From contig CAZEFW010000015.1 in assembly GCA_964511535.1 (NCBI GenBank), positions 3,754-67,753 of the forward strand: a stretch of DNA of 64,000 nucleotides, read 5' to 3'. How positions within the stretch are numbered: the first letter of the stretch is position 1; each line of letters begins with the position of its first letter. The notes beneath the pieces were generated by a model. That model was not told the DNA's origin. It saw only the letters and a list, made by a program, of their open reading frames with translations, and made no database searches. Positions 1-63,737 of the stretch are shown here, one piece after another. This stretch comes from an uncultured Myxococcales bacterium. Its GTDB lineage: Bacteria > Myxococcota_A > Polyangia > GCA-2747355 > CAZCFB01. Both the position numbers and the translations under genes were made by a program.

Positions 1-500
1 GGGGACAGTGACCAGACCAGGGTGATGAACAGCGGGATCAGCAGCAGGGCCATCATGGTGTCGTTCTGGGCCAGCTCGAACTTCGGCTCCCAGAACAGCG
101 CCAGGGCCAGGGCGCCGATCCAGCGCTCCCGCCGGGGCAGCGCGGCGCCCGTGGGCCAGTAGAACCAGATCCCGATGCAGAGGAACTCCAGCAGCAAGTA
201 CGCCAGGTGAGTGCCCACCACCGGGTTGTCCGCCAGGCGGGCGGGCAACGAGAGCCAGGTGTAGAGCGGGCCGCCCAGGGAGTAGCCGGTGCGGCCCAGC
301 TCCTCGCCCAGCACCCACCAGCCGACCTGGTCGAAGTGCTGAAACTGCAGGTCCAGCAGGTGCAGGTGGGGCATGATCGAGGCGGTGTAGAAGATGTGCA
401 GGTGGCGCAGCGCCAGCGCGCCGGTCACCAGCAGGAACAGCAAGTGCGCCGCAAGCGGCGGCCGCCCCTCCTCGGCCGAGGGGTGGCTCAGCCCGACCAC
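1..500 (-). CDS. Membrane protein, partial (runs off window start); possible GTG start at 500..498 ten nt upstream of the TGA stop of the preceding gene
   Basis: Minus-strand frame translated manually from the sequence; it is an open frame of hydrophobic helices with no stops that reaches position 1 (ending ...ALFWEPKFELAQNDTMMALLLIPLFITLVWSLS). It is not in the ORF track because it is truncated by the window edge. Confidence 0.45.
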   Translation of the reverse strand, partial: MVGLSHPSAEEGRPPLAAHLLFLLVTGALALRHLHIFYTASIMPHLHLLDLQFQHFDQVGWWVLGEELGRTGYSLGGPLYTWLSLPARLADNPVVGTHLAYLLLEFLCIGIWFYWPTGAALPRRERWIGALALALFWEPKFELAQNDTMMALLLIPLFITLVWSLS

Positions 501-1054
501 TCGCCCTGCTCGTAGAACACCACGCCCGGGATCTGCCGCCGCTCCACCTCGGCGCGGACCACCTCGTCCACGACGATGGCCGAGCAGCTCTCGGCCAGGC
601 GGAACAGGCGCAGCCCGCGGGCGCGGTCCTCGTCAATCACCAGGCTGTCGAAGCCGGTGGCCAGCGGCCCGCCCGGCATCCCGGGCATCAGGGCCGAGGC
701 CGCCAGGTCCGCGGCCGCCACCAGCCCCAGCACGTTGAAGGCGACGTAGTCGGCGTGGCGCTCCCCGGCCTCAGGGTCGATGAGCAACGCCGGGAACAGC
801 TCCAGGTTGGTGACGCCCACCGCCTCGAGCGCCTCGAGCAGGTCGGCCCGCATCACCGGGAAGGCCTCGGCGTCGTACAGCGCGCCGAGGTTGCCCGGCT
901 CGTCCGGATCCATATCCAGGGTGTACTCCAGGGGCGTGGGCACCTCGATGGCCAGCTTGCGCCCCCGGTACCAGGGGCCGCCGGGCAGCTCCGGCCCCTC
1001 CTCGATGTCCACGCCAGGATAGGGGCCCTCTCCAACCATCACGAAATGGGCCAT
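488..1054 (-). CDS. Hypothetical cytoplasmic protein (188 aa); weak resemblance to DUF1629/Imm-type immunity proteins
   Basis: Complete ORF, acidic, no signal peptide, GC3-rich codon usage; last gene of a coupled operon. Confidence 0.5.
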   Translation of the reverse strand: MAHFVMVGEGPYPGVDIEEGPELPGGPWYRGRKLAIEVPTPLEYTLDMDPDEPGNLGALYDAEAFPVMRADLLEALEAVGVTNLELFPALLIDPEAGERHADYVAFNVLGLVAAADLAASALMPGMPGGPLATGFDSLVIDEDRARGLRLFRLAESCSAIVVDEVVRAEVERRQIPGVVFYEQGEWSG

Positions 1055-1111
1055 GAAGAGATAAACGCACCGCCGCCGGTGAAGGTCAAGCTGGCCGGCG
1101 GCGCCGCCGCC

Positions 1112-2700: not shown

Positions 2701-4243
2701 TGGTAGCTCCACGAGACGTTGACCGACCCGAGGTGGCGCCGGATGTCGAAGCTGGCCACGGTGGAGGGGCGCCAGTCGCGTTGATAGGAGGCCCACACGC
2801 GAAAGCCGAGGGGCAGCGTCCGTCCCAGCTCCACCGCGAGCTGGATCTGGTGGTCCTCGCGCAGCTCCTTCCACGGGCCTCCCTCCGAGTGGGGGAAACG
2901 CTGGTGCTCGTAGGCGCCGCGCAGGCCGAGCACCAGGTCCAGGGGCAGCAGCAGCGACCCGCCCACCCCCTGGCCGTAGGCGAGGGCCGTGTAGTAATCC
3001 CGGTCGGCCATGCGGTAGCGGCCGTAGAGCCAGAACAGCAGCCGCAGGCGATCCGAGAGCACCGACAGCCCGTGCTCCAGCGACAGCTCCAGGCCGAGGT
3101 TGCTGCGGGGGAAGTGGGCGAAGGTCTCCCGGGCCACGCTGTAGGTCACGCGGGTGGCCCCGCCGTCAGCGGCCCGGCGCTCCAGGGTCAGGTGCCCTGC
3201 GTGGCGCTCGAGGAAGATGTGGTGGTCGTCGGCCACCGGTGGCGTGCCGTCCTCGAACAGCTCGTTGAACCCGTCGAGGAACACCAGGTCGAAGCTGTAG
3301 CTGGCCCCGAGGGTCCAGAGGTCCGGGCCGGAGGTGAGCACCCGCGAATAGCCCGCCACGGTGGACAGGGCGGTGGCGGCCACGTCAGACGCCGTGGGCG
3401 AGCCGCCGCCGGTGTCGGCCGGAAAGTAGAAGGTGCGCGCCACGCCGACCCTGCCCTCCACCCGGTTGAACCGATCGATCCAGGGGCGCAGGGTGAGGCT
3501 GCCCGCCAGGGAGAGGCCGAAGACCGGGTCCCCCTGGGCGTCATGCTCGTACAGCGGGTTTTCGTCCACCAGTCCGCCGGCGGCCAGGGAGCCGGAGAGG
3601 AACCCGGAGGGCAGGCCCCCTGCGTCGTGGGTCGCGCGCATCAGGCGGCGGGCCAGCTCACCCCGCTCGCCCAGCAGCAGGGGCGACAGCACGGCGCGGC
3701 TGCGGTCCAGCTCCCGCGCCCGGAACAGCGCAAGGGCCAGCTGCAGATCCGACTCCTGGCGTGGGCCCCCCTTCAGCTTGCGGGCCGCCCGCAGGGCCGC
3801 GGCCGCCTCGGCGGGCTCGTCCATGGCGAGGTAGGCGATGCCGAGGTAGTGCGCGGCGGCCCAGGAGCGCGGGGCGAGCTCGTGCGCCCGGCTCAGGGCG
3901 CGCACCGCCCAGACGGCGTTCCCCTCGGCCAGGTAGATCAGCCCGAGGTCCAGCTGCAACCGCGCGTCCTGCGGGGCCAGGCGGGCGGCGCCGCGCAGCA
4001 CCCGCCGCCCCTCCTCGAGCTGGCCCAGCCGCGCCAGGGCCAGGCCCAGGTGGTGCGCCGCGGCCAGGTGCTCCGGGTTCCCGCGCAGCGCGGCGCGCAG
4101 CAGGGGCACGGCCTTGCCCAGCTCGCCCTGCTGGTAGCGCAGGATCCCGCGCGCGGCTGACAGCTCCGGGGGCACGTCCGCGGCCAGCGCCGGGGCCGCC
4201 GCGAGGAACAACAGCAGGCCTGAGAGCAGGCTACTGCGCATTG
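2697..4243 (-). CDS. TPR-repeat N-terminal domain plus C-terminal outer-membrane beta-barrel-like protein (about 515 aa from MRSSLLSG...)
   Basis: Signal peptide; TPR-like repeats (AAHHLGLALARLG, AAHYLGIAYLAMDEP); the C-terminus alternates hydrophobic residues and ends ...SVNVSWSYQ (aromatic OMP-like terminus); GGGAG RBS before the ATG at 4243. Confidence 0.6.
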
Positions 4244-4911
4244 AGCTCCCGTACCTTCTTGGCCGCCGCGGGCGCGTCCTTGTCCGAAAACTCGGACAGC
4301 TTGGAGGCCAGGCGGCCCTGCTTGTCGACGAAGAAGAAGTCGTAGTAGTTGGCACCGTAGAGGTACCAGACCCCCTTGGTGTCAGGCGTCACGGGGAAGC
4401 TCACCTTGTCGAAGCCGGGCGCGGCGTACTCCCAGGTGACGCCGCCGGCGGTCACCGCCAGCAGCTCAAAGTCGGTGATCCCCTCGGCCTGGAGGGGCTT
4501 GACCAGCTTGTTCTCGAAGGCAACAACCTGCTGCCCACAGTAGCCTCACCCGAGTAACCCGAAGTAGAGCATCACCACCTTCCCCTTGAGGGCGTTGAGG
4601 CAGACCTGCTTGTTGTAGTGGGCGCTCCTGGGGTTGACCGCCTTGAGGCAGAAGTTGGGGGCGGGGACCCGATCGGAGATGGCGAAGACGCAGCGGTTGC
4701 TCTTGCACGACTTGCCCACGGGCACGCCCTTGACGTAGCAGTCGGCGTCCTTCTCGCACTGCAGGTAGCAGCTGCCGGTGGCCAGCTCGCAGATCTGGCC
4801 GCCCGGGCAGTCGCCGTCCGCGGCGCAGCGACCGTAGGTGGAGTCCACCAGGCAGCCGCCCGCCAGCAGCAGGCAGGGGATCAGCAGCAGCGGGAGGTGG
4901 CGGCCGGGCAT
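4231..4911 (-). CDS. Candidate selenoprotein: Cys-rich lipoprotein with a TlpA/ResA-like thioredoxin-fold domain; in-frame TGA at 4548..4546 sits at the first position of CxxC (KGKVVMLYFGLLG-U-GYCGQQ)
   Basis: Track ORFs 4546..5559(-) and 4231..4455(-) are in the same frame, separated only by one TGA. Translation continues across it without stops (...UGYCGQQVVAFENKLVKPLQAEGITDFELLAVTAGGVTWEY...FFFVDKQGRL...). GGGAGG RBS lies 7 nt before the ATG at 4911. Signal peptide with lipobox LLLAGGC. A 6-bp stem with loop AGGUU lies 10 nt 3' of the UGA on the mRNA (+ strand 4535..4519). Confidence 0.6.
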
Positions 4912-6041
4912 CACTTGCCTCCCGTGGTTGTGTGGAGCATCACGCCGCCCTCGCCCACGGCCCACCCCTCGGAGGCAGAGCTGAAGCAGACCGACTCGAG
5001 CCGCTTGGTGGTGCCGGACGGCTGCACCTTCCAGGAGCCGCCGCCGTCGGTGGTGTGCAGGATGGTCCCCTTGTCGCCCACGGCCCAGCCGAGCTTGCTG
5101 CTGTACATGTAGACGTCCCACAGGTGGTTCTTGGTGGGAGACGTGATCGCCTTCCAGACCTTGCCCTTGCCGTCGGTGCTGCGCAGGATGCCGCCGAACT
5201 CGCCCACCGTGACGCCCAGGGAGGGGCCCACGAAGTCGAGGCCGCGCAGGGCGTACTTGAAGGCCGTCTTGACCGACGCCCAGGTGACGCCGCCATCGCT
5301 GGTGTAGTACACCTTGCCGCCGGTCTTGCCCACCATCCAGCCGAGCTTGTTGAACGAGAAGATGTCGTAGAACTCCTCGCTCTTGTAGGTGGGCGTGGCG
5401 CAGACCCAGCTGTAGGAGACCGAGCCGTCGTAATACTTGGACCCGCCGCCCTGCTTGTTCACCGCCACCCCGGCGCCGAGGCCGCGGTCGTAGTCGTGCA
5501 GGTGCAGGGCGTAGAAGGTGTCGAAGATGTAGGCGCTGCACTGGGGAGCGACCCCCCACTTGGTGCCCAGGTCCATGGTCTGCCAGATGTTGTAGTCCTT
5601 GCCCGCGACCACGCCGTAGGTCGCGCCCTTGGCGTTCTCACCGAACGCCACGGTGAACAGCTCCTTCTTGGTGCTGGCGGACTGGTTGACGAAGGTCTTC
5701 TTGCCCTTGGCCCGGTACAGGATGGTGCCCTTCTTGCCCACGGCGAAGACATGGCCCTTGAAGCAGGCCACGGCGTGCAGGTCCACCGGGGCCGACAGCT
5801 CCGCCTTCCACTTGGGCGGCCCCATGGTGTCGGGGGGCGGCGCCTTGTCGGGAGGCGGCTGGGTGTCCGGCGGCGGGGCGGTGTCCGGGACGGGGGCGCT
5901 GTCCGGCTTCAGGTCCGGCGTGGAGCCCAGGTCGGGCCAGACCGCCCCCGAGTCGGCGGAGGCCGCCCGGTCCGAGCAGGCGGAGGCCAGCCCTACGGAC
6001 AGGGCGATGATGGCGAGGGTTATATAGGGTACGCGCTGCAT
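4911..6041 (-). CDS. Lipoprotein with Ycf48-like/BNR (sialidase-type) beta-propeller repeats
   Basis: Signal peptide plus lipobox (LASAC); repeated motifs GWAVG...GTILHTTDGGGSW / YYTSDGGVTW; stop overlaps the start of the downstream gene (ATGA). Confidence 0.65.
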   Translation of the reverse strand: MQRVPYITLAIIALSVGLASACSDRAASADSGAVWPDLGSTPDLKPDSAPVPDTAPPPDTQPPPDKAPPPDTMGPPKWKAELSAPVDLHAVACFKGHVFAVGKKGTILYRAKGKKTFVNQSASTKKELFTVAFGENAKGATYGVVAGKDYNIWQTMDLGTKWGVAPQCSAYIFDTFYALHLHDYDRGLGAGVAVNKQGGGSKYYDGSVSYSWVCATPTYKSEEFYDIFSFNKLGWMVGKTGGKVYYTSDGGVTWASVKTAFKYALRGLDFVGPSLGVTVGEFGGILRSTDGKGKVWKAITSPTKNHLWDVYMYSSKLGWAVGDKGTILHTTDGGGSWKVQPSGTTKRLESVCFSSASEGWAVGEGGVMLHTTTGGK

Positions 6042-6098
6042 GGGGGGATCGTACCAGAGGATCTCCCGGAAACTAAAGGGGGCAAAAGCCTCCAGCAG

Positions 6099-7106
6099 TC
6101 AGCCCACCAGCTCGTGTGGGTACCGCTCCAGCGCCTCCGGGTTCACCAGGTTCGGCGGCATCCGCCCACTCAGCACCGCGTGGGCGTTGGCCGCCGCCGC
6201 CCGGGCCATGCCGGCGCGAGCCCCCACGGTGGCGCTGCCCAGGTGCGGCAGCACCAGCACGTTGTCCAGATCGGCCAGCCCCTGCGCCATGGCCGGCTCA
6301 CGCTCGAAGACGTCCAGCGCCGCGCCGGCGATGCCGCCGCGCTGGAGGCACGACACCAGCGCGGCCTCGTCGACGATGGGCCCCCGGGCGGTGTTGATCA
6401 GGTGGGCGGTGGGCTTCATCAACCCCAGGCGCTCGGCGTCGATGAGGTGCCGGGTCTGCTCGGTCAACGGCGTGTGGATCGTCACGAAGTCCGCCTCGCC
6501 CAGCAGCTGCTCCAGGGAGACCCCGTGCGCCCGGGTCAGCCCCAGGTCGACCTCGCCCTGCGCGCCGGTGTCGTGAAACAGGATCCGCATGTCGAACCCC
6601 GCCGCTCGCCGCGCCACGGCCCGGCCGATCTGTCCCAGCCCGACGATGCCGAGGGTCTTGCCCGCGACGTCCGCGCCCAGCAGCAGCAGCGGCCCCCACC
6701 CGTCGTACTGCCCCGCGCGCATGAAGCGGTCCCCCTCCACCAGCCGCCTCGCGATGCCCAGGATCAACGCCCAGGTCAGGTCCGCGGTGGCCTCGGTGAG
6801 CACCCCGGGCGTGTTGGTCACCAGCACGCCGCGCCGCGTGGCCGCGGGCACGTCCACGTTGTCGAAGCCCACCGCGTAGTTGGCCACCACCCGCAGCCGC
6901 GGCGATGCCGCCGCCAACAGCTCCTCGTCCACGGCGACGGTGAGCAGCGGCAGCAGGGCGTCGAACCGCCCCACCCGCTCCAGCACCGCGGACCGCGGCT
7001 CTGTCCCTTGAAGCTGCACCACCCGGTGGTGCTGGTGCAGCAGGTCGAGGCCGCCCTGCACCAGCGGATGCGTCACCAGGATCCGCCCGCCATCAGACAT
7101 GCTCAT
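6099..7106 (-). CDS. D-isomer-specific 2-hydroxyacid dehydrogenase (glyoxylate/hydroxypyruvate reductase family)
   Basis: NAD-binding GxGxxG (GIVGLGQIGRAVARRA), catalytic-domain pattern and overall length typical of the family. Confidence 0.85.
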   Translation of the reverse strand: MSMSDGGRILVTHPLVQGGLDLLHQHHRVVQLQGTEPRSAVLERVGRFDALLPLLTVAVDEELLAAASPRLRVVANYAVGFDNVDVPAATRRGVLVTNTPGVLTEATADLTWALILGIARRLVEGDRFMRAGQYDGWGPLLLLGADVAGKTLGIVGLGQIGRAVARRAAGFDMRILFHDTGAQGEVDLGLTRAHGVSLEQLLGEADFVTIHTPLTEQTRHLIDAERLGLMKPTAHLINTARGPIVDEAALVSCLQRGGIAGAALDVFEREPAMAQGLADLDNVLVLPHLGSATVGARAGMARAAAANAHAVLSGRMPPNLVNPEALERYPHELVG

Positions 7107-7629
7107 GCTCCTTCATCGTCCACGCCGCCAGCGCTCCGAACGCCAGCATCGCGCCCTTGGCCAGGGCCAGCGGGGCCACTGAAAGCGGCGTGAGCAGCCC
7201 GAGGGCGGTGCCCGCGCCCGCCACGGCCATGGCCGCCAGGCAGAACCACCGCGACCGCCCGGTGATGAGCAGCACGGCCGCGGCGAAGGCCATCAGCCCG
7301 CCCAGAACGGACACCGCGCCAGAGACCATCATGATGGCGCTCGAGTCCTCGAGCTCCTCGACGATCTTCGTCGCCCGGGCCTTGACTCGGGCCAGCGCTT
7401 GCCGCTCGCCCAGCTGCTTGAGCTTCACGCCCCGCTTGCGCAACAGCCGGCGCTCCGACGCGCTGAGCCCCCCCGCCGCGCTGCCGACGTTCTGTTCCAG
7501 CAGCTTGAGGCCGGCGTGGATCACGGTGCGCCCCGCGCGGCTCGCCCCGGCCGCGGCCATGTTGCACGCCCCACTGCTGAAACAGAGGATGGCAGCCAGC
7601 AAAACCACCATCCCGCCTGCGATACGCAT
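7093..7629 (-). CDS. Membrane protein, hypothetical (178 aa)
   Basis: N-terminal hydrophobic segment plus two C-terminal TM helices; overlaps the downstream gene by 14 nt. Confidence 0.5.
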   Translation of the reverse strand: MRIAGGMVVLLAAILCFSSGACNMAAAGASRAGRTVIHAGLKLLEQNVGSAAGGLSASERRLLRKRGVKLKQLGERQALARVKARATKIVEELEDSSAIMMVSGAVSVLGGLMAFAAAVLLITGRSRWFCLAAMAVAGAGTALGLLTPLSVAPLALAKGAMLAFGALAAWTMKEHEHV

Positions 7630-7694
7630 CGCTGTGCTCCTCTGTAGGTCACTTTAGCTCAAACTACGCCGGGTGAGGTACACTGCTCCCCACC

Positions 7695-8165
7695 ATGCGT
7701 GTGCTGGCTTCCATGCTGTTCATCACCGCTGCGGTGGTCCAGCTCCTGCTCGGGGGGCTGCTCATCTTCTCCGGGCAGGACCAGGAGCATGACGCCCGGG
7801 CGGAGGTGGGCGACCTGTCGTCTGTGAGCGCCGACCTGGTGAGCGAAGAGGAGCTCGCCGCCATGAAGGCCACCGGCGACCGGGAGGCCGGCGGGGCAGG
7901 CAAGCAGACCCAGGCGCTGGGCATCCTGGCGCTGGCCCTGGCCGCCCTGCTGCTGGTGGCCGCCCTGCTGGTGATGCTGCGCAAGGGACCCGCCCCGGTC
8001 CGCCTGGCCCCGGGGGTGCTCTCCATGGCCTGCCTTGCCGCCATCTGGTTCCTGGAGGGCGGGCCGCTCACCGCGATCATCGCCCTGGCCCTGCTCGCCC
8101 TTGGCCTGATCCTCGCCGGCGCGGACGCGGCTCGAAATTCCACCGCCAAGCAGGTGGCGCCGTGA
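7695..8165 (+). CDS. Membrane protein, hypothetical (156 aa, 4 predicted TM helices)
   Basis: Hydrophobic helices; stop overlaps the GTG start of the HAD gene (GTGA). Confidence 0.5.
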   Translation: MRVLASMLFITAAVVQLLLGGLLIFSGQDQEHDARAEVGDLSSVSADLVSEEELAAMKATGDREAGGAGKQTQALGILALALAALLLVAALLVMLRKGPAPVRLAPGVLSMACLAAIWFLEGGPLTAIIALALLALGLILAGADAARNSTAKQVAP

Positions 8166-8824
8166 GCGCCCCGACGCCCGGCATCATCTTCGACCTCGAC
8201 GGCCTGCTGGCTGACACCGAGCCGGTGTGGGCCGAGTCGGCCCGGCGCCTGCTGGCCCGCCGCGGCCTGGCGTGGGAGCCCCGGCTCAAGGCCCGCATCA
8301 TGGGCCGCCACCCGCTGGAGGTGGCGCGGATACTGGCGGACCACTACGACCTGGACGAGCCCCCGGAGGTGCTGTTCGAGGAGCGCATCGCGCTGGTGCA
8401 CGCGCTGTACGACGAGCAGCCGGCCCGGCCCATGCCCGGCGCCCTGGCCCTGGTGGGCGCCCTGCACGGGGCGGGGCATCCCATGGCCGTGGCGTCCGGC
8501 TCGTTGACCCCCCTCGTGGATCGCGTGGTCAGCCACCTCGGCGTCGGCCCGGCCATGAATGCCTGCATCGGCTCGGACCAGGTGGCCCGAGGCAAGCCGG
8601 CCCCGGACATCTTCTTGCTCGCCGCCCGCCGCCTGGACCTCCCGCCGGAGCGCTGCTTCGTGCTCGAGGACGCCGCCGCCGGCGTGGAGGCGGCCCTGGC
8701 CGCCGGCATGACCTGCATTTGCGTGCCCTCCCCGGAGACGCCCCCCGACGCCGCGGCCCGGGCCCATCGCGTGGTGGCAAGCCTCGAGGCGCTGGGGGTC
8801 GCGGACTTCCGACAGACATCTTAG
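8162..8824 (+). CDS. HAD-superfamily hydrolase (beta-phosphoglucomutase-like subfamily IA)
   Basis: DxDG motif (IIFDLDGLLADTE), S/T motif, K...DD motifs typical of HAD. Confidence 0.8.
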   Translation: MSAPTPGIIFDLDGLLADTEPVWAESARRLLARRGLAWEPRLKARIMGRHPLEVARILADHYDLDEPPEVLFEERIALVHALYDEQPARPMPGALALVGALHGAGHPMAVASGSLTPLVDRVVSHLGVGPAMNACIGSDQVARGKPAPDIFLLAARRLDLPPERCFVLEDAAAGVEAALAAGMTCICVPSPETPPDAAARAHRVVASLEALGVADFRQTS

Positions 8825-8833
8825 ACTTGGGGC

Positions 8834-10312
<1,479 letters not shown>

Positions 10313-10368
10313 CCCGCTGTCATTCTGCCATTTTGGCCCCAGCCCTGGCCCTCCCTGGCCCTGTACAG

Positions 10369-10426
10369 AAGTTCAAAGGTTGGCACTGACCCGATAAACC
10401 GAAAGTTCAAAGGTTGGCACTGACCC
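10369..10426. repeat. Two perfect 24-bp direct repeats (AAGTTCAAAGGTTGGCACTGACCC) at 10369..10392 and 10403..10426, between convergent gene ends
   Basis: Seen directly in the sequence. Confidence 0.8.
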
Positions 10427-10440
10427 CAATATCCGCTGAC

Positions 10441-10490
10441 CTGAAGCCTGAAGTCTGAAGCCTGATGCCTGGGCTCGCGAAGCGAGCTCT
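10441..10490. repeat. Copy of dispersed repeat family 1 (CTGAAGCCTGAAGTCTGAAGCC ... GCGAAGCGAGC)
   Basis: Same heptamer/GCGAGCGAAGCGAGC modules recur at 26527-26904, 34511-34791, 50449-50562 and 57745-57780. Confidence 0.7.
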
Positions 10491-12502
10491 CACACCTCCA
10501 TGCCCGCTCGAAACCCTTCATGGATCGCGTCGTACGCCCGCCGCGGGCTCTTGGCATCGCCCACCACGAAGATGCCGTCCCCCTCGCCCAGCGCCCCGGC
10601 CAGCGCGTCGTCCGCGGCCGCCCCCATGGCCAGCACCACCGTATCAGCCGGCAGCAGCCGCTCGCCATCGCCGCTGTCCACCGTCACGCCCTCGGCCGAG
10701 ATGCCCACCACGCAGGTCTCCGTCAGGGTCTCCACGGCGAACCGCTTGAGGTCCTGGATCAGGCTCCAGCGGGTGCTCTTGCCGATCCCCTCCCCCGCCC
10801 TCGCCTTCAGCTCCACCATGGTCACTTCATGGGTGCCGTGCAGGCATGCCTGCCGCAGCCGCTCGGGCTCCTCCGCCTCGTTGACCAGCAGGAACCGCAA
10901 GGTCTCGCCGTCCAGGGTCCCTCGCTGGGACAGCTCCCGCGCCACGTCCACCGCCACCGGCCCGCCGCCCACCACCACCACACGGCGCCCCACCAGCGCC
11001 TTGCCCGACAGCACGTCCCAGGCCTGAACCGCGCTCGGATGGTCTGCGCCCGGCAGCGCCGCCGCCACCGGCTGCGCCCCGGTGGCCACGATCACCGCGT
11101 CCGCGCCCAGCTCGGCCAGGCCCTCGGCCGTGGCCTCCTCGCCCAGCCTGATCTCCGCCCCGCTGGCGCGCAGCCGCCGCTCCAGGTCCTCTGCCACCAC
11201 CAGCAGCTCCGCCCGGTCCTCAGTGGACCCCGCCAGCAACAGCTGCCCCCCCAGGAGCAGGCCGCGCTCCATCAGCACCACCTCGTGTCCCCGGCCCGCC
11301 GCGGTGAGGGCCGCCATCATGCCCGCAGGGCCCCCGCCCACCACCGCCACCTTGCGCGGCCGCTTGACCTTGCTCAACAGGGCCGTCTGCTCCACCCCCG
11401 CCCGCGGGTTGACCATGCAGCGCACGGGCATGCCCTTGAACACATGGTCGAAGCACCCCTGGTTGCAGGCGACGCAGTGCACCGGCGCGCCTTCGCCCCT
11501 GAGGACCTTGTTCGGCAGCGCCGGGTCCGCGATGAGCGGCCGCCCGAGGTTGATGATGTCGGCCATGCCGTCTCTCAGCGCCGCCTCGGCCATGGCGGGC
11601 TTCGAGATGCGGTTGGACGCCATCACCGGCACCTCCACCGCCTCACGAATCCGCCGGGCCAGGTAGAGGTACGCGCCGCGCGGCACGCCCATGCTCAGCT
11701 GGGGCACGCGGGTCTCGTGCCAGCCGCCGGTGACGTTGATGGAGTCGGCGCCGGCCTCCTGGAAAAGCTTGCTGGCCGCCGCGCTCTCGTCGCTGCCGTG
11801 GCTCCCGGGCATGAAGTCCGAGCCCGCCACCCGCACCACCACCCCCGTGTCCGGCCCCACCGCCGCCCTGACCTGCTGCACGATCTCCTGGCCGAAGCGC
11901 GCCCGGTTCTCGAACGAGCCGCCGTATTCATCCTCCCTGTGGTTGGTCACCGGCGAGAGGAACTGGCTGATGAGGTACCCCGCCGAGCCGAGCACCTCCA
12001 CCCCATCGAAGCCCGCCTCCACTGCCCGCCGCGCGGCCTCGGCGAAGCTCGCCTGCACCGCCGGGATCTCGTCCAGCGCCAGCGCGCGCGGGGTCTCACG
12101 GGTCAGCTTCGAGGGGATGGCCGAAGGCGCCACCGCGGGCTGCCCGGTGAACATGGTGTAGGCGTATCGGCCCGCGTGGTACAGCTGAGCCACGGCGAGG
12201 CTGCCGCCGTCGTGGATGGCGTCGGCCAGGCGGCGGAGCCCCGGGATGAACCGGTCCTCGTGCAGCCCGATGAGCATCGGGCCTCCCCCGGCGAGGTCCA
12301 CGCCGCAGCCGCCCACGGTGATCAGCGCCACGCCCCCGCGTGCCCGCTCGGCGTAGAACGCCACCAGCTGGTCCGAGACCTCACCGCCCATGGTGTAGTT
12401 CAGGTGCATGGCGGGCATGGCCATGCGGTTCTTCAGCTTCATTGGGCCGACCTGGATCGGCTCGGACAGGCGAACGACGCTGGCGACAGGGGAGTGGATC
12501 AT
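10490..12502 (-). CDS. NADH:flavin oxidoreductase (Old Yellow Enzyme N-terminal domain) fused to an FAD/NAD(P)-binding domain; 2,4-dienoyl-CoA reductase (FadH)-like
   Basis: OYE TIM-barrel motifs, Cys cluster (CVACNQGC) and a C-terminal GGGPAG dinucleotide-binding domain. Start chosen at MIHSP (12502), which has a GGAGGTG RBS. Confidence 0.8.
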   Translation of the reverse strand: MIHSPVASVVRLSEPIQVGPMKLKNRMAMPAMHLNYTMGGEVSDQLVAFYAERARGGVALITVGGCGVDLAGGGPMLIGLHEDRFIPGLRRLADAIHDGGSLAVAQLYHAGRYAYTMFTGQPAVAPSAIPSKLTRETPRALALDEIPAVQASFAEAARRAVEAGFDGVEVLGSAGYLISQFLSPVTNHREDEYGGSFENRARFGQEIVQQVRAAVGPDTGVVVRVAGSDFMPGSHGSDESAAASKLFQEAGADSINVTGGWHETRVPQLSMGVPRGAYLYLARRIREAVEVPVMASNRISKPAMAEAALRDGMADIINLGRPLIADPALPNKVLRGEGAPVHCVACNQGCFDHVFKGMPVRCMVNPRAGVEQTALLSKVKRPRKVAVVGGGPAGMMAALTAAGRGHEVVLMERGLLLGGQLLLAGSTEDRAELLVVAEDLERRLRASGAEIRLGEEATAEGLAELGADAVIVATGAQPVAAALPGADHPSAVQAWDVLSGKALVGRRVVVVGGGPVAVDVARELSQRGTLDGETLRFLLVNEAEEPERLRQACLHGTHEVTMVELKARAGEGIGKSTRWSLIQDLKRFAVETLTETCVVGISAEGVTVDSGDGERLLPADTVVLAMGAAADDALAGALGEGDGIFVVGDAKSPRRAYDAIHEGFRAGMEV

Positions 12503-12551
12503 CGGCGCACCTCCGGTTGGGAGGCACAACCGTACCACAGCGTCCCTGCGG

Positions 12552-12710
12552 CTAATTATTGACCAGGCTGGCGCCCACGATGGTGCCCACGACCCCGGTG
12601 ACCACCGGGTTGCAGGTCATGACTCAGGTGGATCCGACGGTCTGCAAAAGGAACCCCAGTCCCACGCCCAGTACACCGCCGATGGTCGCGAATATGATGC
12701 CCTGCTTCAT
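12552..12710 (-). CDS. Small glycine-zipper membrane ORF with an in-frame TGA (MKQGIIFATIGGVLGVGLGFLLQTVGST-U-VMTCNPVVTGVVGTIVGASLVNN); very speculative
   Basis: Manual translation; GxxxG-type helices on both sides of the TGA at 12626..12624; hairpin CCGGUGGUCACCGG 15 nt downstream; weak RBS. Confidence 0.2.
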
Positions 12711-12846
12711 GCTGCAAAATTAGCACAAACCGGGCGGTGATCCATGATGGGTGCGGCCCCGGGACCATCCCGGCTCCTGCCTCCACTCCTAAATAGCAGG
12801 TATTTTCTGGTACTATGGGTCTCGCGGACCTGCCAAGGAGGGTTAA

Positions 12847-13965
12847 ATGCAATTGAATCCGTTACTTGCCCGGCTATTACTCCCGGGCGTCCTGGCCGTT
12901 GCCCTCACGGGCTGCAGCGATGGTACGGGCAGCAGCGACCCGGCCACCACGGAGTGGAAGCGGCAGACCATGATTGACGCCTGCGTGCGCATGCACTCCT
13001 GCGGGGTCTTCGCGGTCACCGACGTCTACGGCTGCATCACGGACTTCGAGGAGACCAAGGCCACGCCCACGGGGACTGCCGCCATGTACAAGAAGCGGCA
13101 CTTCTGCGTCAACAAGGCCGGCGGCGATTGTGACGCCATTCGCGCCTGCTTCGGCGGCCAGAAGTGGGACCTGGAGAAGCAAGGCCCTGAGTGCGACAGC
13201 ACCTTCAAGCCGAGCTGCGAGGGGACCAAGATGCGCATCTGCGACTCGCTCAACAAGCGCATCTTCGCCCTGGACTGCGCGGAGGCCGGGCTCTCCTGCG
13301 CCACCGACGTCAACGGCCAGCCCTTCTGCAGCGCAGGCCCGTGCAAGACGGCCAAGAAGAACGACAACACCTGCAGCGAGGACAAGACGCAGCACCTGTT
13401 CTGCAACGGCACCGGCCTGCAGATCGAGCAGTGTGACTGGCTCAGCCTCGTGTGCGGAAAGGACCGGGACGGCAAGATCGATTGCGTCGGGACCGGAAAG
13501 GAATGCAAGGGGTGAGCTAGCAAAGACGGCCTTTCGTGTAAAGGCATCGGCACCCCGACTTACTGCGAGACTGGCGACACCTGCGAAGACAAGGCGGCCT
13601 GGAAGTGCAAGCGGGCCAGCAACAGCAAGACCTACCTCTCGGCCGCGAGCGCCAAGGGCCCCGCCTGCGGACTGCACCCCGGCTACCGCACCGGCTGCAT
13701 GTGCGGCAACGAGGCGAACATCGACTGCCGCTCCATGCCTGGCAAACGCATCTGCGACCCGAAGGCCGACAAGTTCGACTACTGCGCCCCCGCGGGCAAG
13801 GAGTGCGGCGTCGCATCGGGCGTCAAGGACGCCTGCGACGGCGACACGCTCGTCTTCTGCGTGGACGGCTTCAAGACCCGGGTAGACTGCACCAAGTTCG
13901 GCTTCAAGGGCTGCAAGAGCCTCACCGTGGGCGGCGGCTCGGTCCTCGGCGCGCTCTGTTACTGA
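12847..13965 (+). CDS. Cys-rich secreted lipoprotein; single in-frame TGA at 13513..13515 (candidate selenocysteine, or a nonsense-interrupted pseudogene)
   Basis: Track ORFs 12847..13515 and 13699..13965 share a frame. The 183 nt between them are open and encode Cys-rich sequence of the same character (ASKDGLSCKGIGTPTYCETGDTCEDKAAWKCK...). Signal peptide with lipobox LTGC. Stem-loop GCCUUUCGUGUAAAGGC at 13529..13545, 13 nt after the TGA. Confidence 0.5.
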
Positions 13966-21821: not shown

Positions 21822-22313
21822 CTACTCCGAGGCCACCGGGGCGATGCAGGTGAGCTCGCCATGCACCGGGATCGCCTCTTCGTTGTCCATGATCTCGATG
21901 ATCAGGTCGTCGGCGTTGAACGCCTCTTCCAGCTCGAGGTTGTCGATGGCCCGGCGCTCGCCCTCGCGCCGCTCGCCGCACGTGTCCCGCGGATCGGGCA
22001 GCTCCCGCCGGCGGTCGTTCCAGCGCCGGTCCCGGCTGAGCCGCTGGCGCAGGCCCTCGATGCTGTGTGGCATGGGGGCGATGCGCATGGCCCGGGCCCC
22101 ACAGTTGTGGCACATGGGCAGCCAGGCGTTGCGAAACTCCACCAGCTTCAGGTTCTCGTGTCGGCGGTCATTGCAGATGACGCAGGCCGCGCCATGCCCC
22201 ACCGGGCGCGCCTCGGCCCAGCGGATGTAGCATATCCAACAACGGCCCCGGCGCAGGTTCTGTACGCGCGCGCCGCACACTTCGCAGGTCTGTGTGTCCT
22301 GGGACTCGATCAT
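21822..22313 (-). CDS. Zinc-ribbon protein, hypothetical (two CxxC...CxxC pairs); track ORF extends to 22328
   Basis: CEVCG...CWIC and CVICN...CHNCG motifs; acidic C-terminus. Confidence 0.45.
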   Translation of the reverse strand: MIESQDTQTCEVCGARVQNLRRGRCWICYIRWAEARPVGHGAACVICNDRRHENLKLVEFRNAWLPMCHNCGARAMRIAPMPHSIEGLRQRLSRDRRWNDRRRELPDPRDTCGERREGERRAIDNLELEEAFNADDLIIEIMDNEEAIPVHGELTCIAPVASE

Positions 22314-22440
22314 GGGTTCACCTCGCATAGTTCCTTACATTGTCGTACACGTCGCCAACGGGCCGGGCAAATTTTTCGCCCGCGATAATTGCCAGGCCCG
22401 ACCGGGTCAGCCTAACCTGTGGAGCAGAGGAGTTTTTTTG

Positions 22441-23157
22441 ATGCGCCGTCCGCGTTGGACCCTTGCCGTTGCCGCCCCCCTGCTGCTGCTGGTGTGCGGC
22501 GCCTTTGACTGCCCCATCGCCCTGGACGAGCCCACGCCCAAGAACAAGGACGGCGGGACCAGCGCCACGCCCGCCATCATCATCGGCGGCAACACCCCCG
22601 TCTATTGGACCCTGACCACCACGCCGTACATCACGGTCACTGCCCACGGCCCCAAGGCGGTGCAGACCAAGGTGCTGCAGGCCACGACGTCCGGCCAGGT
22701 GGGCGACAGCTTCATCAGCCTGCTCTCCTTTTGTGGCCTGGCCAACGCCGTCTGCCCCCACAAGGTGTTGCCCAACCCCACCGCCGTGGCCCAGTACTTG
22801 AGCCAGCCGTCGACGCCGGTGTTCGGGTTCAACCGAACCGGGCCGCTGGCGCTGCTCAAGAAGGCCATGGGCCTGCTCGGGACGCTGTCGGGCAACCAGC
22901 TGATCATCTCCCTGGCCACGGACCACCTGAGCGCCGCCAAGGCCGACCCCTGCGCCCTGGGCCAGGCGTCGCGCATCAGCGCCACGGTGAGCGGCAAGGG
23001 GGGCAAGGTCATCGCGGCCCCGGCCAAGGGGGAGCTGATCCAGGGCACCATCAAGCTGGCCTACAAGTCCGACTGCTTCACACTCTCCGGTCAGAGCGTG
23101 GTGCCCACCGGCACCCGGGTGGAGCTGAGCGTGCCGTTCACGGCGAGCCGCAGGTAA
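22441..23157 (+). CDS. Secreted hypothetical protein (238 aa, 6 Cys)
   Basis: AGGAG RBS; signal peptide MRRPRWTLAVAAPLLLLVCGA; lies 17 nt upstream of the radical SAM gene. Confidence 0.55.
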   Translation: MRRPRWTLAVAAPLLLLVCGAFDCPIALDEPTPKNKDGGTSATPAIIIGGNTPVYWTLTTTPYITVTAHGPKAVQTKVLQATTSGQVGDSFISLLSFCGLANAVCPHKVLPNPTAVAQYLSQPSTPVFGFNRTGPLALLKKAMGLLGTLSGNQLIISLATDHLSAAKADPCALGQASRISATVSGKGGKVIAAPAKGELIQGTIKLAYKSDCFTLSGQSVVPTGTRVELSVPFTASRR

Positions 23158-23173
23158 GCGGGAGCGCGGCGCC

Positions 23174-24145
23174 GTGGCAGTGCCCGAGGTACCCACCTGC
23201 CTCATCGCGGTGCCCACCTTCCGCTGCCCCCTGCGCTGCATGCACTGCGACCTGCCGGGGCTGCGCGGCGACGAGGTGCCGCCTGCCCTGTGGCGGCAGC
23301 GGCTGCAGGAGCTCGGCCAGGAGGTCGAGCGGCCGTTTCTGGTGGGGATCTCCGGCGGCGAGCCGCTGGTGTACGAGGGGATCGACGAGCTCGTCGGGGC
23401 CTGCGCGGAGGCGGACATGCTCACCGCCCTGGCCACCAGCACCCTCCCCCTGACCGAGGACCGCGCCCGCAGCCTGCTGGCCGCCGGCGTCAACGCCCTG
23501 GTGCTGCCCCTGGACGGCATCGGCCTGCACCACGACGAGCTGCGACGCAAGCCGGGCATGTTCGAGCGCACCGTGAAGGCCGCGCAGATGGTCAAGGGCT
23601 TCAGCCCCATGCTGCATGTCAGCGCCGTGTCCACGGTGACCCAACGCAACGCGGACCAGCTGGTCTCCATCGCCCACTGGATCTACGGGCAGCCCGAGAC
23701 CTTCAACCAGATCTGCTTCCACACCCTGAGCGGCAACCTCGGCGGGCCCCTGGAGCATGACCCGCAGTGGCACCGCAAGAGCCCGCTCTGGCCCGGCGGA
23801 CATGAGCACCTGCAGGACCAGATCGAGCAGCTGGCCGCGCTGGCCGAGGAGGGGCTCCCGTTCGTCAACAGCGCCGACGAGCTGCGCGCCATGGCGCGCT
23901 TCTACGCCCGGCCCGACGAGCCCCTGCGCAGCTGCGATCAGTACAACCGCGGCATGCTCGCGCTGCCCGACGGCCACGTGAAGATCTGCCCGCTTCACGA
24001 CCCGGTGGGCAACTTCCGCGAGCAGTCGCTGCTGGAGATCTGGCGTTCACCCGCCGCCCGGGCGCTGCGGCAGGAGATGCGCGGCTGCCGGCGCAACTGC
24101 CACTTCATCACCAACTACGCGTACCAGCGGCACGAGGTGCGCTGA
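23174..24145 (+). CDS. Radical SAM enzyme with C-terminal SPASM-like domain
   Basis: CxxxCxxC (CPLRCMHC) near the N-terminus; C-terminal Cys cluster (CDQYNRG...KICPLH...CRRNCHF). Confidence 0.8.
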   Translation: MAVPEVPTCLIAVPTFRCPLRCMHCDLPGLRGDEVPPALWRQRLQELGQEVERPFLVGISGGEPLVYEGIDELVGACAEADMLTALATSTLPLTEDRARSLLAAGVNALVLPLDGIGLHHDELRRKPGMFERTVKAAQMVKGFSPMLHVSAVSTVTQRNADQLVSIAHWIYGQPETFNQICFHTLSGNLGGPLEHDPQWHRKSPLWPGGHEHLQDQIEQLAALAEEGLPFVNSADELRAMARFYARPDEPLRSCDQYNRGMLALPDGHVKICPLHDPVGNFREQSLLEIWRSPAARALRQEMRGCRRNCHFITNYAYQRHEVR

Positions 24146-36657: not shown

Positions 36658-39225
36658 TTACCGCTTGTAGTTCTGCCGTCCCTTGTAGCCGCCGCCCCGC
36701 TGGCCCTTGGCGTTCCAGCCGGACTTGTTCTTCACCACCTTCAGGTGAGGCCGCCCCTGGACCACCTGCTTCTTGTGAAACTTGGTGGTCTTCTTGGCCT
36801 TCGCCTTGCGCACCCGCGGCGCCTTGAGCTTGTGGGTGTGGAGCGCCGCGGTGCCCGACTTCTGGATCGCCCGCTGCAGAGCGCGCTGGTGGCGCGGCGT
36901 GCGGGGTTTGGTGGTCTTCTTGGTGGTGGCGGTCTTCTTCTTGCCCCTGGAGGCCTGCCGCGAGCGCTCGTTGTTGAACAGCGCCTTGCTCACCGCGCGC
37001 AGGGAGTTGGACTTGAGCGCCCCGCGGCTACCGCCGCGCCGCCGCGCCTCCACGGAGAGGGCCACCTGCACGTCGCTGCTGTCGAGCACCGACTGGATCC
37101 CCTTGCCGTAGTTGCGCCCGCCGTTGTTGAGCCACTTCTTGTTGCGGCCGGTGGCGTCGAAGAACGCGGCCCGGATCTTCTTGATCGGCGCCTCGCCCAG
37201 CGGGATGTCATAGGTCGCCTCCGCCCCGTTTACCGAGGAGGGGCTGTAGTCCTTCCAGCTGTCGCCGCCCAGGTTCAGGTGGAGCTTGTAGTTCTTGCCG
37301 GTGCGCAGGCCCAGCGGGTCGCCCTTGACCGTGACCCGCACCATGTCCTTGGTGCCGTTGGAGAGCTGCTGGATGGTGACGCCGTCCTCCTTGTGCTTGC
37401 TCAGCACCAGGTAGCCGTCCCGGGTCTTGGGCGCCCGACCGCCCAGCACCATGTCCGCGGTGTGCACCGCCGAGCCCGGGCCGAGCACGTTGTTCTTGCG
37501 CATGAAGGCGTTGAGGTCGGCGCGCACCTGGTTCAGGGGCTCGCCGCCCTTGACCCGGTCGGTGACGCTGATGGAGTAGTCGCGCAGGTCCTGGCGCACC
37601 AGAGAGACGGCGTGGCGGTTGCGGTGCCCTGCCCGCTCCTTCATCAGCTTGATGCGCCCGCGCGCCTCGGCGGCGCCCAGCTTGCCCACCACCGGCTTGA
37701 TCACCTTGTCGTAGGCCTCCACCAGCATCTTGGCGCGGTTGGTGTCCGTGGTGTCCAGCTTGGCCCCCGGGCGCATGGCCCTGGCCACCGCGTCCACCCG
37801 CTGCGCCATGGTCATGGTGCCCAGCTTCGTCTCCGGCAGCTTGTTCAGCGCGGCGAACATGTCGTAGCGCGCCGGGTTCTCCACCTGGGTGCTCTTGCCC
37901 ATCTTGTGCTTCTTGCCCTGCTCCACGATGTTGCCCATGGTGGTGAAGGCCGTCATGAAGGTCTTGGCCGCGCCGCGGTCCTTGTTCATGGCCTTCTTGG
38001 CCTCGGCCTTGGACATGCCCGCGTGCAGCAGGGTGTTCTGGGTGAAGCGGCGCTCCAGCATGCCGTCGGCGATCTTGTCCGGGCGCAGCTTCTTGAGCTC
38101 CTTCTGCTCCGCCGGTGTGGCGGACTTCATCATCAGGTTGTACAGCTCGGTCTTGACGTAGCGGTCCATGACGAACTTGGGCTCGCCGCCGTAGCCGATC
38201 CACTTGGAGAAGAAGGAGTAGTTCTTGTGGGTCCGGTCCACGGTGGAGCCGGTGCCGTGGTCCATGTTCTCCATCAGGCCGATGTTGTCGTAGGTGGTGG
38301 AGCCGTGCACCGTGCGCAGGAAGAACATGTCGGCCATCTCGTTGGCCTTGCGCTGGGTCAGCGTCTTGTACAGGCCGGGGATGGACATCTTGCGGCTGCG
38401 GCCCATCTCCATGCTCACCTGGGTGTTGGCGAAGTCCACCAGCTGGCGCAGGGCCTTCTTGTCGTTGCGCACCAGGTTCCAGTGGGCCAGGCGGGTGAAG
38501 TTGCCGCCACGGATCAGCAGGCCGGCGCGCTCGCGCCCGCCGTTGGGGTGGACGATGTCGCTGCCGCTGTCGATGACCGCCAGCCACTTGTTGGTCTTTA
38601 TGCCGTTGCGGGAGAGGTAGTCGGAGAACAGCGCGTCCTCGGTGGCCTGGCGCAGCGACTCCTTGCCGTGGCGGTGGCCGAAGCCTTTCCAGTTGGGGTG
38701 CAGCCCGGTGCCAACGCCCTTGACCTGGATGTCGTACACGCCGGTGATGTTGCCCTTGCGATCCTTGATCACCACCTCGCCCGTGAGCGCGGCGCGGCCG
38801 TCGCCCTTGACGCCCTTTTCGCCGCCGCGGGCGTCCGCGTAGCGCGTGGCCAGGCCCATGTGGGTGTGCTTACCGGCCTTGATCTCGGCCTCGGTGGCCG
38901 GGCGGAAGGCGAAGTTGTTGACCACGCCCTTCTCGAGGTTGTGGTCATGGCGGCTGCCGGGGGAGGTCCGGAAGCCCAGCCTCTTGAGCTCGCGATGGTT
39001 GGCCATCACCACCCGCGCGCCCTCCTCGCGTACCAGCGGGACCTCCTTGACCATGGTCTTGCGGACCTGGTTATCGAAGGCCCTGCCAAAGCTGCTGCCG
39101 CCAGAGAAGCGGGCCAGCTGACCGGGCTCCTGGGCGTGGGCGGCTGAGAGGCTCAGGGCGAGCACGCCGGCCATCAGCGCGGTGGCCAGCTGCTTCAGGA
39201 TATGATTTCGGCGGTTCAATCTCAT
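36658..39225 (-). CDS. Secreted SelO/YdiU (UPF0061)-like pseudokinase-fold protein with a long Lys-rich C-terminal extension (about 855 aa)
   Basis: Signal peptide (start MRLNRR, with GGAG RBS). Blocks match SelO/YdiU conserved motifs: GDGRAALTGE, DIQVKGVGTG, ERAGLLIRGGNFTRLAHWN, HGSTTYDNIGLMENMDHGTGSTVD (cf. E. coli YdiU GDGRGILLGE / DWHLKGAGLTP / GAMLMRVAPSHLRFGHFE / [25 protein letters not shown]). Lower GC than neighbours. Confidence 0.6.
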   Translation of the reverse strand: MRLNRRNHILKQLATALMAGVLALSLSAAHAQEPGQLARFSGGSSFGRAFDNQVRKTMVKEVPLVREEGARVVMANHRELKRLGFRTSPGSRHDHNLEKGVVNNFAFRPATEAEIKAGKHTHMGLATRYADARGGEKGVKGDGRAALTGEVVIKDRKGNITGVYDIQVKGVGTGLHPNWKGFGHRHGKESLRQATEDALFSDYLSRNGIKTNKWLAVIDSGSDIVHPNGGRERAGLLIRGGNFTRLAHWNLVRNDKKALRQLVDFANTQVSMEMGRSRKMSIPGLYKTLTQRKANEMADMFFLRTVHGSTTYDNIGLMENMDHGTGSTVDRTHKNYSFFSKWIGYGGEPKFVMDRYVKTELYNLMMKSATPAEQKELKKLRPDKIADGMLERRFTQNTLLHAGMSKAEAKKAMNKDRGAAKTFMTAFTTMGNIVEQGKKHKMGKSTQVENPARYDMFAALNKLPETKLGTMTMAQRVDAVARAMRPGAKLDTTDTNRAKMLVEAYDKVIKPVVGKLGAAEARGRIKLMKERAGHRNRHAVSLVRQDLRDYSISVTDRVKGGEPLNQVRADLNAFMRKNNVLGPGSAVHTADMVLGGRAPKTRDGYLVLSKHKEDGVTIQQLSNGTKDMVRVTVKGDPLGLRTGKNYKLHLNLGGDSWKDYSPSSVNGAEATYDIPLGEAPIKKIRAAFFDATGRNKKWLNNGGRNYGKGIQSVLDSSDVQVALSVEARRRGGSRGALKSNSLRAVSKALFNNERSRQASRGKKKTATTKKTTKPRTPRHQRALQRAIQKSGTAALHTHKLKAPRVRKAKAKKTTKFHKKQVVQGRPHLKVVKNKSGWNAKGQRGGGYKGRQNYKR

Positions 39226-39392
39226 GTCACGCAATCTCCAGCACCTCTTTATAGCAACAGAGGTGCCAGATCGTAAAATCAAAAATTACGCTTACTTGAA
39301 AGATCGGGCTGGGGTGAGATGACCCTGGCGGTGGTACCCCGGGTGGCCACCTGGGGGCCGGATCCCTCAAATGCCCCATGCTCTCGGGGTGT

Positions 39393-40490
39393 TTACTCAA
39401 TAATTTCGTAAGTATGAATCAGGCCCTTGCCGCGCCGGATCAGGGCGAAGGTGAGCTTCTTCGCCCCTCGGAGTTTGGAGTACACCCGCAGCGCCCGGTC
39501 GGGGCTGGCAATGGACATCCCGTTGACAGCGGTGATGGTATCGCCGTTGCGCAGCCCCAGAACGGCGTAAATACTGCCCGGACGGATGGCGTACAGCTTG
39601 AACCCGATGGGCTTGCCATCGCGGACGGTCGGGACGATTCGCGCGCTCCGCGCCAGCTTGCTGGGATCCCCGAGCAGGTTGTCCAACAGCTCTCGCTGGA
39701 TGGTCCAGTGGCCATCTCCGACCTTGCTGACGAGCCGGGTTGCCCAGTCCGCAGGGAGCGGCTTCGGGCGGCGCGGAGGAAAGGGATCCTCACTGGGATC
39801 CGGCGGATCGGGCGGCGCGGTCTCCTTGCGGATCATCCCGCTCATTCGTCGAAGCGGCCCCTGGATCGTGAACAGGTAGCTGCCGTCATCCTGCTGCTTG
39901 TTGGCGTAGGTGGCGTAGAAGATCTTCAGCGCGACGCTCTTTTCCAGCAGGGCCTTGCCCAGGCGTACGCGGATCCGCGCCGAAACCACGGACGCTTCAA
40001 TGGGATGTCGGAGGCGCACGGAACCCGATACCTTGAGCGTGATGTCCCCCTTCTCTGCAGTGAGCGACTCCAGCGCCAGGTTGCCGTTTCCAAGGGTGAT
40101 CCGGGCGCGCACCTGACCCAGATCGATGTCCGGCAGGGTCATGCTGGCCCACACCGGGTGTCCACGTGCGGAGAGCTGCGAGGCCGGGATGCGGCACCCC
40201 TTGCAGGTCAGCTCCAGGGCGCCGGTGGCCTGGCTGATGTTCTCGCCGGGGGGCAGAAGGATCTCCCCGGTGGCGGTCACCTCGCCCTCCAGGGGCACTC
40301 CCAACACAGATCTTGCCATCTCTGCAGGAACTCTCATTTTTCGCCCGGTGAAGCTGAGCCGTAGCCCATCCGGCGGTGCTGGTTTTACGCATGGACGCGG
40401 GGAGGGGGGCGGTTTTGGCGGCGGGGTGGCGCTGCAGGCGCACAGGGCGAAGAGAGTCGGGATCAGGCAGTGGATCGGTTTCATGCGCAC
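39393..40490 (-). CDS. Lipoprotein with C-terminal PDZ domain (T2SS GspC/GspN-like architecture)
   Basis: Lipobox LFALCAC, Pro-rich linker, C-terminal PDZ-like segment (GFKLYAIRPGSIYAVLGLRNGDTITAVNGMSI). Confidence 0.45.
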   Translation of the reverse strand: MRMKPIHCLIPTLFALCACSATPPPKPPPSPRPCVKPAPPDGLRLSFTGRKMRVPAEMARSVLGVPLEGEVTATGEILLPPGENISQATGALELTCKGCRIPASQLSARGHPVWASMTLPDIDLGQVRARITLGNGNLALESLTAEKGDITLKVSGSVRLRHPIEASVVSARIRVRLGKALLEKSVALKIFYATYANKQQDDGSYLFTIQGPLRRMSGMIRKETAPPDPPDPSEDPFPPRRPKPLPADWATRLVSKVGDGHWTIQRELLDNLLGDPSKLARSARIVPTVRDGKPIGFKLYAIRPGSIYAVLGLRNGDTITAVNGMSIASPDRALRVYSKLRGAKKLTFALIRRGKGLIHTYEIIE

Positions 40491-63691: not shown

Positions 63692-63737
63692 CGGTCCCCC
63701 GCTCCGCCGACGCGCCGAACAGAGGAGAAGCTGTCAG

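Follow-up and report, generated by a model that had tools for sequence, protein, structure and literature searches.

We describe here a 64,000-nucleotide stretch of DNA from an uncultured Myxococcales bacterium (contig CAZEFW010000015.1 of assembly GCA_964511535.1; the whole stretch is hereafter called the window) and focus on two of its genes, A and C, in each of which an internal TGA is predicted to encode selenocysteine (Sec, U). The window has a G+C content of ~69%, which is myxobacteria-like, and its gene content, with Ser/Thr kinases, Cys-rich lipoproteins and an Imm11 immunity protein, also looks myxobacterial; PEGA and type VI secretion genes are neighbours in related loci. With its UGA read through, gene A (4231-4911, minus strand) would encode a lipoprotein of 226 residues with Sec at residue 122, ending in TAG, and gene C (12847-13965, plus strand) a Cys-rich lipoprotein of 372 residues with lipobox LTGC and Sec at residue 223.

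The predicted Sec codon of gene A, at 4546-4548 on the minus strand, is the first position of a U-G-Y-C (UxxC) active-site motif and stands in the context ...KGKVVMLYFGLLG-U-GYCGQQVV.... From its N-terminal end the protein has a signal peptide bearing a lipobox, then a module rich in Cys, and then a thioredoxin fold of the TlpA/AhpC-TSA type. The Pfam domain AhpC-TSA (PF00578) spans the TGA, covering residues 83-201 and profile positions 4-121 of 124 with 27.5 bits against a gathering threshold of 26, when U is written as C in the query. Thioredoxin-family chains from the PDB (4hqz, 2yp6 and 3hdc) align to residues 72-223, and the TGA aligns to the first Cys of WCGPC/WCPYC in solved proteins of that family, including 4hqz and 3hdc. 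The best NCBIfam match is NF053656, the 'TUGYCR motif thioredoxin fold (seleno)protein' (E = 7e-15). Its score of 55.1 bits is below the family cutoff of 100, and the motif reads G-U-G-Y-C-G in the window and [TA]-U-x-x-C-G-Q-Q in the orthologues rather than T-U-G-Y-C-R; we thus regard gene A as a divergent relative of this family and not as a member.

Homologues of gene A were not found by a word-based search; an exhaustive HMMER search returned 99, which fall into three groups. Many are fragments of ~120 residues whose last residue is exactly the one before the TGA, many others are C-terminal fragments of ~92 residues, and the third group consists of full-length proteins with Cys at the TGA position (LLGCTPCG in P0010, LLGCAPCG in P0011 and SCGYC in P0046). 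These three proteins, together with 4hqz and 3hdc, establish a Sec/Cys pairing for gene A. In all four orthologous DNA loci (L014, L017, L019 and L021) the TGA is kept and is followed by x-x-C-G-Q-Q-V, and the ratio of non-synonymous to synonymous substitution rates (dN/dS) after the TGA is 0.18 against L014, the closest orthologue. Gene A is carried by assembly GCA_964575815.1 too. A further set of relatives (P0023, P0028, P0035 and P0047) has two domains in ~400 residues, with a CxxC thioredoxin domain and an abrupt end at '...YFG[SA]CT'. This end lies exactly before the point where the U of the NCBIfam TUGYCR motif would stand. In contrast to gene A, the true TUGYCR domain appears to be the second domain of these larger proteins; they are probably also selenoproteins that gene callers have truncated.

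In gene C, the predicted Sec codon (13513-13515, plus strand) is the last position of an invariant C-x-G-U motif, in the context ...GTGKECKG-U-ASKDGLSCKG..., which sits between two Cys-rich halves of a protein with more than 30 Cys residues. The protein matches nothing in Pfam or NCBIfam. Sequence and profile searches returned 14 clusters of related proteins of 201-224 residues, all of which end in ...C-x-G before the TGA. At the DNA level, the TGA and C-x-G-U are invariant in 12 distinct sequences, namely the window and 11 other loci drawn from ENA, JGI, Logan and GenBank, down to 38% identity (L013). After the TGA, all 11 other loci stay in frame for 102-154 codons and keep every Cys; the window's own gene continues for 149 codons, likewise with every Cys conserved in the alignment, and in L007, L010, L023 and L024 a 45-codon deletion after the TGA preserves the frame. 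Three close pairs give a dN/dS of 0.26-0.45 after the TGA, similar to the upstream part; distant pairs are saturated and uninformative. The hosts of family C so far are one Myxococcota genome bin, HK-STAS-MYXO-11 (JACKDQ01), and myxobacteria-like metagenome contigs.

Other features of the gene C protein bear on what it may do. A segment near its N-terminus, A-C-V-R-M-H-S-C-G (residues 46-52, 12985-13005), is almost invariant in members of 38%-79% identity, and this cluster of Cys, Met and His could be a metal site. An AlphaFold model built from the alignment of N-terminal fragments is confident for residues 35-217, which form a helical subdomain followed by beta-hairpin repeats, and has a predicted local distance difference test score (pLDDT) below 35 around the Sec; no fold match to the model was found in the PDB.

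Both genes have a stem-loop in the coding sequence directly after the UGA that resembles a bacterial selenocysteine insertion sequence (bSECIS). The gene A hairpin (4518-4536, minus strand; GGGCAGC / AGGUU / GUUGCCU) starts 9 nucleotides after the UGA, with 16 nucleotides from the UGA to the apical loop, a stem of 7-8 base pairs, a loop that can be drawn as GGU or AGGUU, and an energy of -9.7 kcal/mol. An unguided RNAalifold prediction on five sequences returns it with an upper stem of 8 base pairs; 94% of the cells of the alignment are paired, and one or two pairs show a compensatory change. The gene C hairpin (13528-13546, plus strand; (G)GCCUUU / CGUGU / AAAGGC(A)) starts 13 nucleotides after the UGA, with 19 nucleotides to the apical loop, a stem of 6-7 base pairs and a loop of CGUGU or AGUGU in which GUG is conserved. 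Here the unguided RNAalifold consensus on 11 sequences has six pairs, none of them broken, and two compensatory pairs (U-A to C-G and G-C to U-A). The bSECIS model requires an apical loop of 3-9 nucleotides, an upper stem of 4-16 base pairs, a G in the first two loop positions, 16-37 nucleotides from UGA to loop and a minimum free energy of -7.5 kcal/mol or lower (PMC13188914), and the two hairpins both lie within its ranges for loop, stem, position of the G and spacing.

A preliminary description of this DNA had proposed three frames that continue through a TGA, each followed by a stem-loop with G and U in its loop. Genes A and C bear this out for both frame and hairpin. The third frame, for which we take the TGA at 6099-6101 on the minus strand since no list of frames was given, is instead a junction of two genes, and the hairpin that follows it has a UUUU loop with no G. 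This TGA is the ordinary stop of a 2-hydroxyacid dehydrogenase gene (6099-7106, minus strand), whose Pfam domains are complete before it, and 57 nucleotides on begins a gene for a BNR/Ycf48-like lipoprotein that has an ATG and a signal peptide of its own. In three related loci (L015, L016 and L001) the stop of the dehydrogenase gene is TAG, and in L001 the gene after it lies in a different frame, with stops in between. The 'linker' peptide is not conserved. A Sec codon at 6099-6101 is thus ruled out by the TAG of the orthologues, the complete gene, the separate gene that follows and the lack of a SECIS-like hairpin.

More generally, we asked of the TGAs in the window whether the sequence on both sides carries a coding signature, that is, high third-codon-position G+C (GC3) and low G+C at the second codon position. 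Five true TGAs have it (1114, 4548, 6101 and 51129 on the minus strand and 13513 on the plus strand), three of which (4548, 6101 and 13513) lie in the range 4231-13965 of the preliminary description; the remainder are antisense shadows. The TGAs at 1112-1114 and 51127-51129 are ruled out as Sec sites, since each marks the junction to a gene that has a start of its own and no hairpin follows, and so are those at 21125, 46096 and 46360, whose frames are antisense shadows of real genes. At 8822-8824, between a HAD hydrolase and an HtrA gene, the stop is a TAG and is likewise ruled out. Of the in-frame stops at gene-gene junctions, four were examined (three TGA and one TAG), and none is followed by a hairpin of the kind seen in A and C.

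GC3 also served to set genes apart from open frames that are spurious, of which there are many, and a hand count of the stops of 46 confident genes in the window gave 21 TGA, 20 TAG and 5 TAA. TGA is clearly a normal stop here, even if the statement that most genes end in it was too strong. Systematic recoding of TGA, which had been put forward as an alternative to Sec, is excluded by the 21 genes that end in TGA and by the presence of an internal TGA in two genes only. In the same count TAG stops are nearly as frequent as TGA stops. A share of 20 in 46 genes is unusually high for a genome of ~69% G+C, and could be a trait of the lineage or a sign that TGA is avoided.

Taken on sequence evidence, it is highly likely that the window holds two Sec-decoded genes, A and C, encoding exported lipoproteins in which a hairpin directs Sec insertion by the standard bacterial route, and that the TGA at 6099-6101 is a normal stop. 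The inserted residue is very probably Sec in both proteins, and Sec usage, as first proposed for all three frames, is the best explanation for two of them and not for the third. Several results weigh against this reading. Pfam scans of ~40 open reading frames (ORFs) of the window, with four others (1-632, 59565-61130, 61158-63323 and 63188-64000) left out of the scans, did not find selA, selB or selD, and tRNA scans of the window and six related loci found no tRNA-Sec. Neither hairpin is more stable than its dinucleotide shuffles (z = -0.1 and +0.4), their covariation is modest and comes from few independent events, with about two compensatory pairs per hairpin, and neither matches an Rfam SECIS family, whether the gathering thresholds or an E limit of 10 is applied. 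The bare gene C hairpin of the window, at -6.3 kcal/mol, is weaker than the bSECIS cut-off of -7.5; with flanking sequence it reaches -9.6 kcal/mol, and the hairpins of gene C homologues range from -11.3 to -11.6. Finally, no Cys-containing or full-length form of family C was found in a collection of 5.8 billion clusters, in GTDB genomes or in JGI metagenomes, by searches that rested on shared words and back-translated patterns and were limited in sensitivity.

Three other explanations have to be set against Sec decoding. Were the TGAs true stops, the two loci would produce short N-terminal proteins, and the frame downstream would be a separate gene or the decaying remnant of a split gene or pseudogene. 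Existing annotation follows this reading: none of the 14 protein clusters of family C in public data goes beyond the TGA, gene callers put a small orphan ORF after it in each locus, NCBI lists a homologue as a hypothetical protein of 220 residues, and family A is present as the N-terminal and C-terminal pieces of ~120 and ~92 residues described above. The prediction that standard gene callers cut or split such genes thus holds for both families, and TGA does serve as a normal stop in the window. A stop, however, would sever the thioredoxin fold of gene A at its active site, and in both families conservation restarts at the first codon after the TGA. Neither frame has a nearby start or a signal peptide downstream, the first possible start being a GTG 31 codons on in gene A and the first ATG in gene C being 62 codons on. 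Close-pair dN/dS values below 0.5 indicate purifying selection after the TGA, and a decaying gene would not keep the same 'break' in lineages that have diverged to 38% identity, as is seen here. We thus consider true stops very unlikely.

A second explanation is read-through without selenium, in which, for example, a near-cognate tRNA inserts Trp, Cys or Arg at the UGA, perhaps stimulated by the hairpin, so that short and long products are made. Two points count in its favour: a Sec machinery is still to be shown for this genome, and hairpin-stimulated read-through exists in other systems. Against it, the redox Cys of a CxxC motif in A and a CxxU-type motif in C are typical positions for Sec (PMC13188914), the hairpins have the geometry of SelB-type bSECIS elements and keep a G(G/U) in the loop, and the closest curated family of gene A is annotated as a (seleno)protein. 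On balance this explanation is unlikely, if a little less so than true stops. The third explanation is that the pattern arose by coincidence, or from a mistake in sequencing or assembly, in a window rich in G+C, where long open frames and hairpins are common. There are 254 TGAs in the window with at least 40 open codons on both sides, and 55 of 1596 TGAs (3.4%) are followed at 8-16 nucleotides by a hairpin with a stem of at least 6 base pairs and GU in its loop, as against 2.5% in first-order Markov simulations; the raw frequency of TGA plus hairpin, for which a comparison with shuffled sequence had been suggested, is thus not above chance level on its own, and the energies of the hairpins are unremarkable. 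Open frames through a TGA and hairpins after it being common by chance, the case rests on conservation. The same TGA occurs in independent ENA, JGI, NCBI and Logan assemblies, which effectively refutes coincidence or error, and a scan of ~240 kb, made up of the window and related loci, found a hairpin together with coding signatures on either side of a TGA only in genes of the A and C families; the window's own gene C failed the G+C cut-offs of that scan and was confirmed separately. We regard the chance that A and C are artefacts as negligible.

If A and C are decoded with Sec, a complex of SelB, GTP and Sec-tRNA(Sec) would bind the hairpin in the coding sequence, 16-19 nucleotides after the UGA, and would deliver Sec to the ribosome in place of the release factor. 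Gene A would then encode a lipid-anchored thiol:disulfide oxidoreductase of the TlpA/ResA/AhpC-TSA type, acting outside the cytoplasm, in which Sec takes the place of the attacking Cys of CxxC to give U-G-Y-C. For gene C, whose protein would also act outside the cytoplasm, the C-x-G-U motif would most likely be a redox-active selenenylsulfide or a site that binds a metal or selenium; judged from sequence, a selenenylsulfide redox centre or a role in metal binding is plausible.

Both genes can be compared with known systems. A 2026 catalogue of 119 selenoprotein families includes thioredoxin-fold proteins with UxxC and types with a CxxU motif (PMC13188914). Gene A resembles the former (Prx-like thiol:disulfide oxidoreductase PF00578, the thiol-disulfide isomerase-like or TlpA family cd02966 and redoxin PF08534), and also NCBIfam NF053656, in its AhpC-TSA/TlpA fold, in having Sec first in UxxC, in its Cys-form homologues and in the bSECIS-type hairpin directly after the UGA, and differs from them in its additional Cys-rich N-terminal module and lipoprotein signal. 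Gene C shares with the CxxU selenoproteins (SelW-like, AhpD-like, DUF1858, the CC/Se motif family, UshA-like family 2 and the FCYXU type of TonB-dependent receptor, all of them computationally defined; PMC13188914) a single Sec in C-x-x-U and a bSECIS-type hairpin. The likeness ends with motif and hairpin: gene C encodes a lipoprotein of ~370 residues, rich in Cys, with no match to a Pfam or NCBIfam family or a PDB fold and no homologue found with Cys in place of Sec, and it matches none of the 119 catalogued families. As for the hairpins, they share with the E. coli fdhF-type SECIS and the bSECISearch consensus a position in the coding sequence directly after the UGA, a G(G/U) at the start of a small loop and the spacing, here 16-19 nucleotides. 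They differ in their short stems of 6-8 base pairs, with no bulged U or extended lower helix evident.

The preliminary description also took the window to imply extensive use of Sec and a selenoprotein-rich organism. This does not follow from two selenoprotein genes: probable selenoprotein genes number two among ~46 in the window, and no candidates beyond the A and C families were found in the rest of it or in ~175 kb of partly redundant related loci. The two are also unlinked in relatives, L001 having C without A and L017 A without C. There is a precedent in the phylum, Anaeromyxobacter having 11 selenoproteins (PMC1794560); a search of the literature on myxobacterial selenoproteins or 'TUGYCR' returned nothing relevant. 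A weak Pfam match to SelO (protein adenylyltransferase; E = 6.6e-10), in an ORF of 875 residues at 36658-39285 on the minus strand, is the sole sel-related name in the Pfam scans and is unrelated to Sec insertion. Bacterial SelO-like proteins that contain Sec have been reported (PMC12013277). The ORF in the window ends in TAA with the next gene in the same frame, and nothing in it suggests a Sec codon.

Gene A has a conserved setting. The gene for the BNR/Ycf48-like lipoprotein noted above (4911-6041, minus strand; Pfam PSII_BNR) precedes it, and the TGA stop of that gene overlaps the ATG of gene A in the sequence TGATG (4909-4913, minus strand; the corresponding position in L017 is 10001), which makes co-transcription and translational coupling of the two probable. 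The order BNR, A, TPR recurs in L017/L018 and the order 2-Hacid_dh, BNR, A in L015/L016. Gene A probably forms an operon with the BNR/Ycf48-like lipoprotein and a TPR protein, and the overlap and kept gene order suggest a functional module in the cell envelope. In L017 (4445-8221), type VI secretion genes for VgrG and PAAR adjoin this module. Directly before the ATG of the BNR/Ycf48-like gene stands the sequence CTCTGGTACGATCCCC (at about 6042-6060, minus strand, in the window and about 1290-1308 in L015). Unlike the remaining intergenic region, it keeps its nucleotide sequence in L015/L016, and it may be an element for translation initiation or regulation.

Elsewhere in the window, the gene for the Imm11-family immunity protein lies close to the left end (488-1111, minus strand). 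A gene for a radical SAM / SPASM-domain protein (23129-24145, plus strand) follows an ORF without any Pfam match (22231-23157), and the two could be a pair for peptide maturation. At 39286-41692 the G+C content falls to 63-64%, and two lipoprotein-like ORFs, at 39393-40490 (minus strand) and 40659-41597 (plus strand), have a GC3 too low for the filter.

What these findings mean differs for the two families. In all public assemblies examined, annotation wrongly reduces both genes to fragments, and this is corrected here for two protein families. The recoding mechanism is conventional and the existing picture of it is unchanged. To the UxxC thioredoxin-fold selenoproteins, gene A adds a divergent branch, set apart by its lipoprotein signal and the Cys-rich module at its N-terminus. 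Gene C is the more interesting of the two, being apparently Sec-only and uncatalogued. Almost all selenoproteins have Cys homologues (PMC12013277), and these underpin the discovery methods that do not rely on SECIS; a Sec-only gene, as C appears to be, is unusual and, having no Cys homologues, would be hidden from searches based on Sec/Cys pairs. With odds only somewhat better than even, we see in gene C the founder of an uncatalogued selenoprotein family of Cys-rich lipoproteins with an invariant C-x-G-U; no Cys counterpart having been found, selenium may be indispensable to it. Gene C also suggests that Myxococcota use selenium in exported proteins of the cell envelope.

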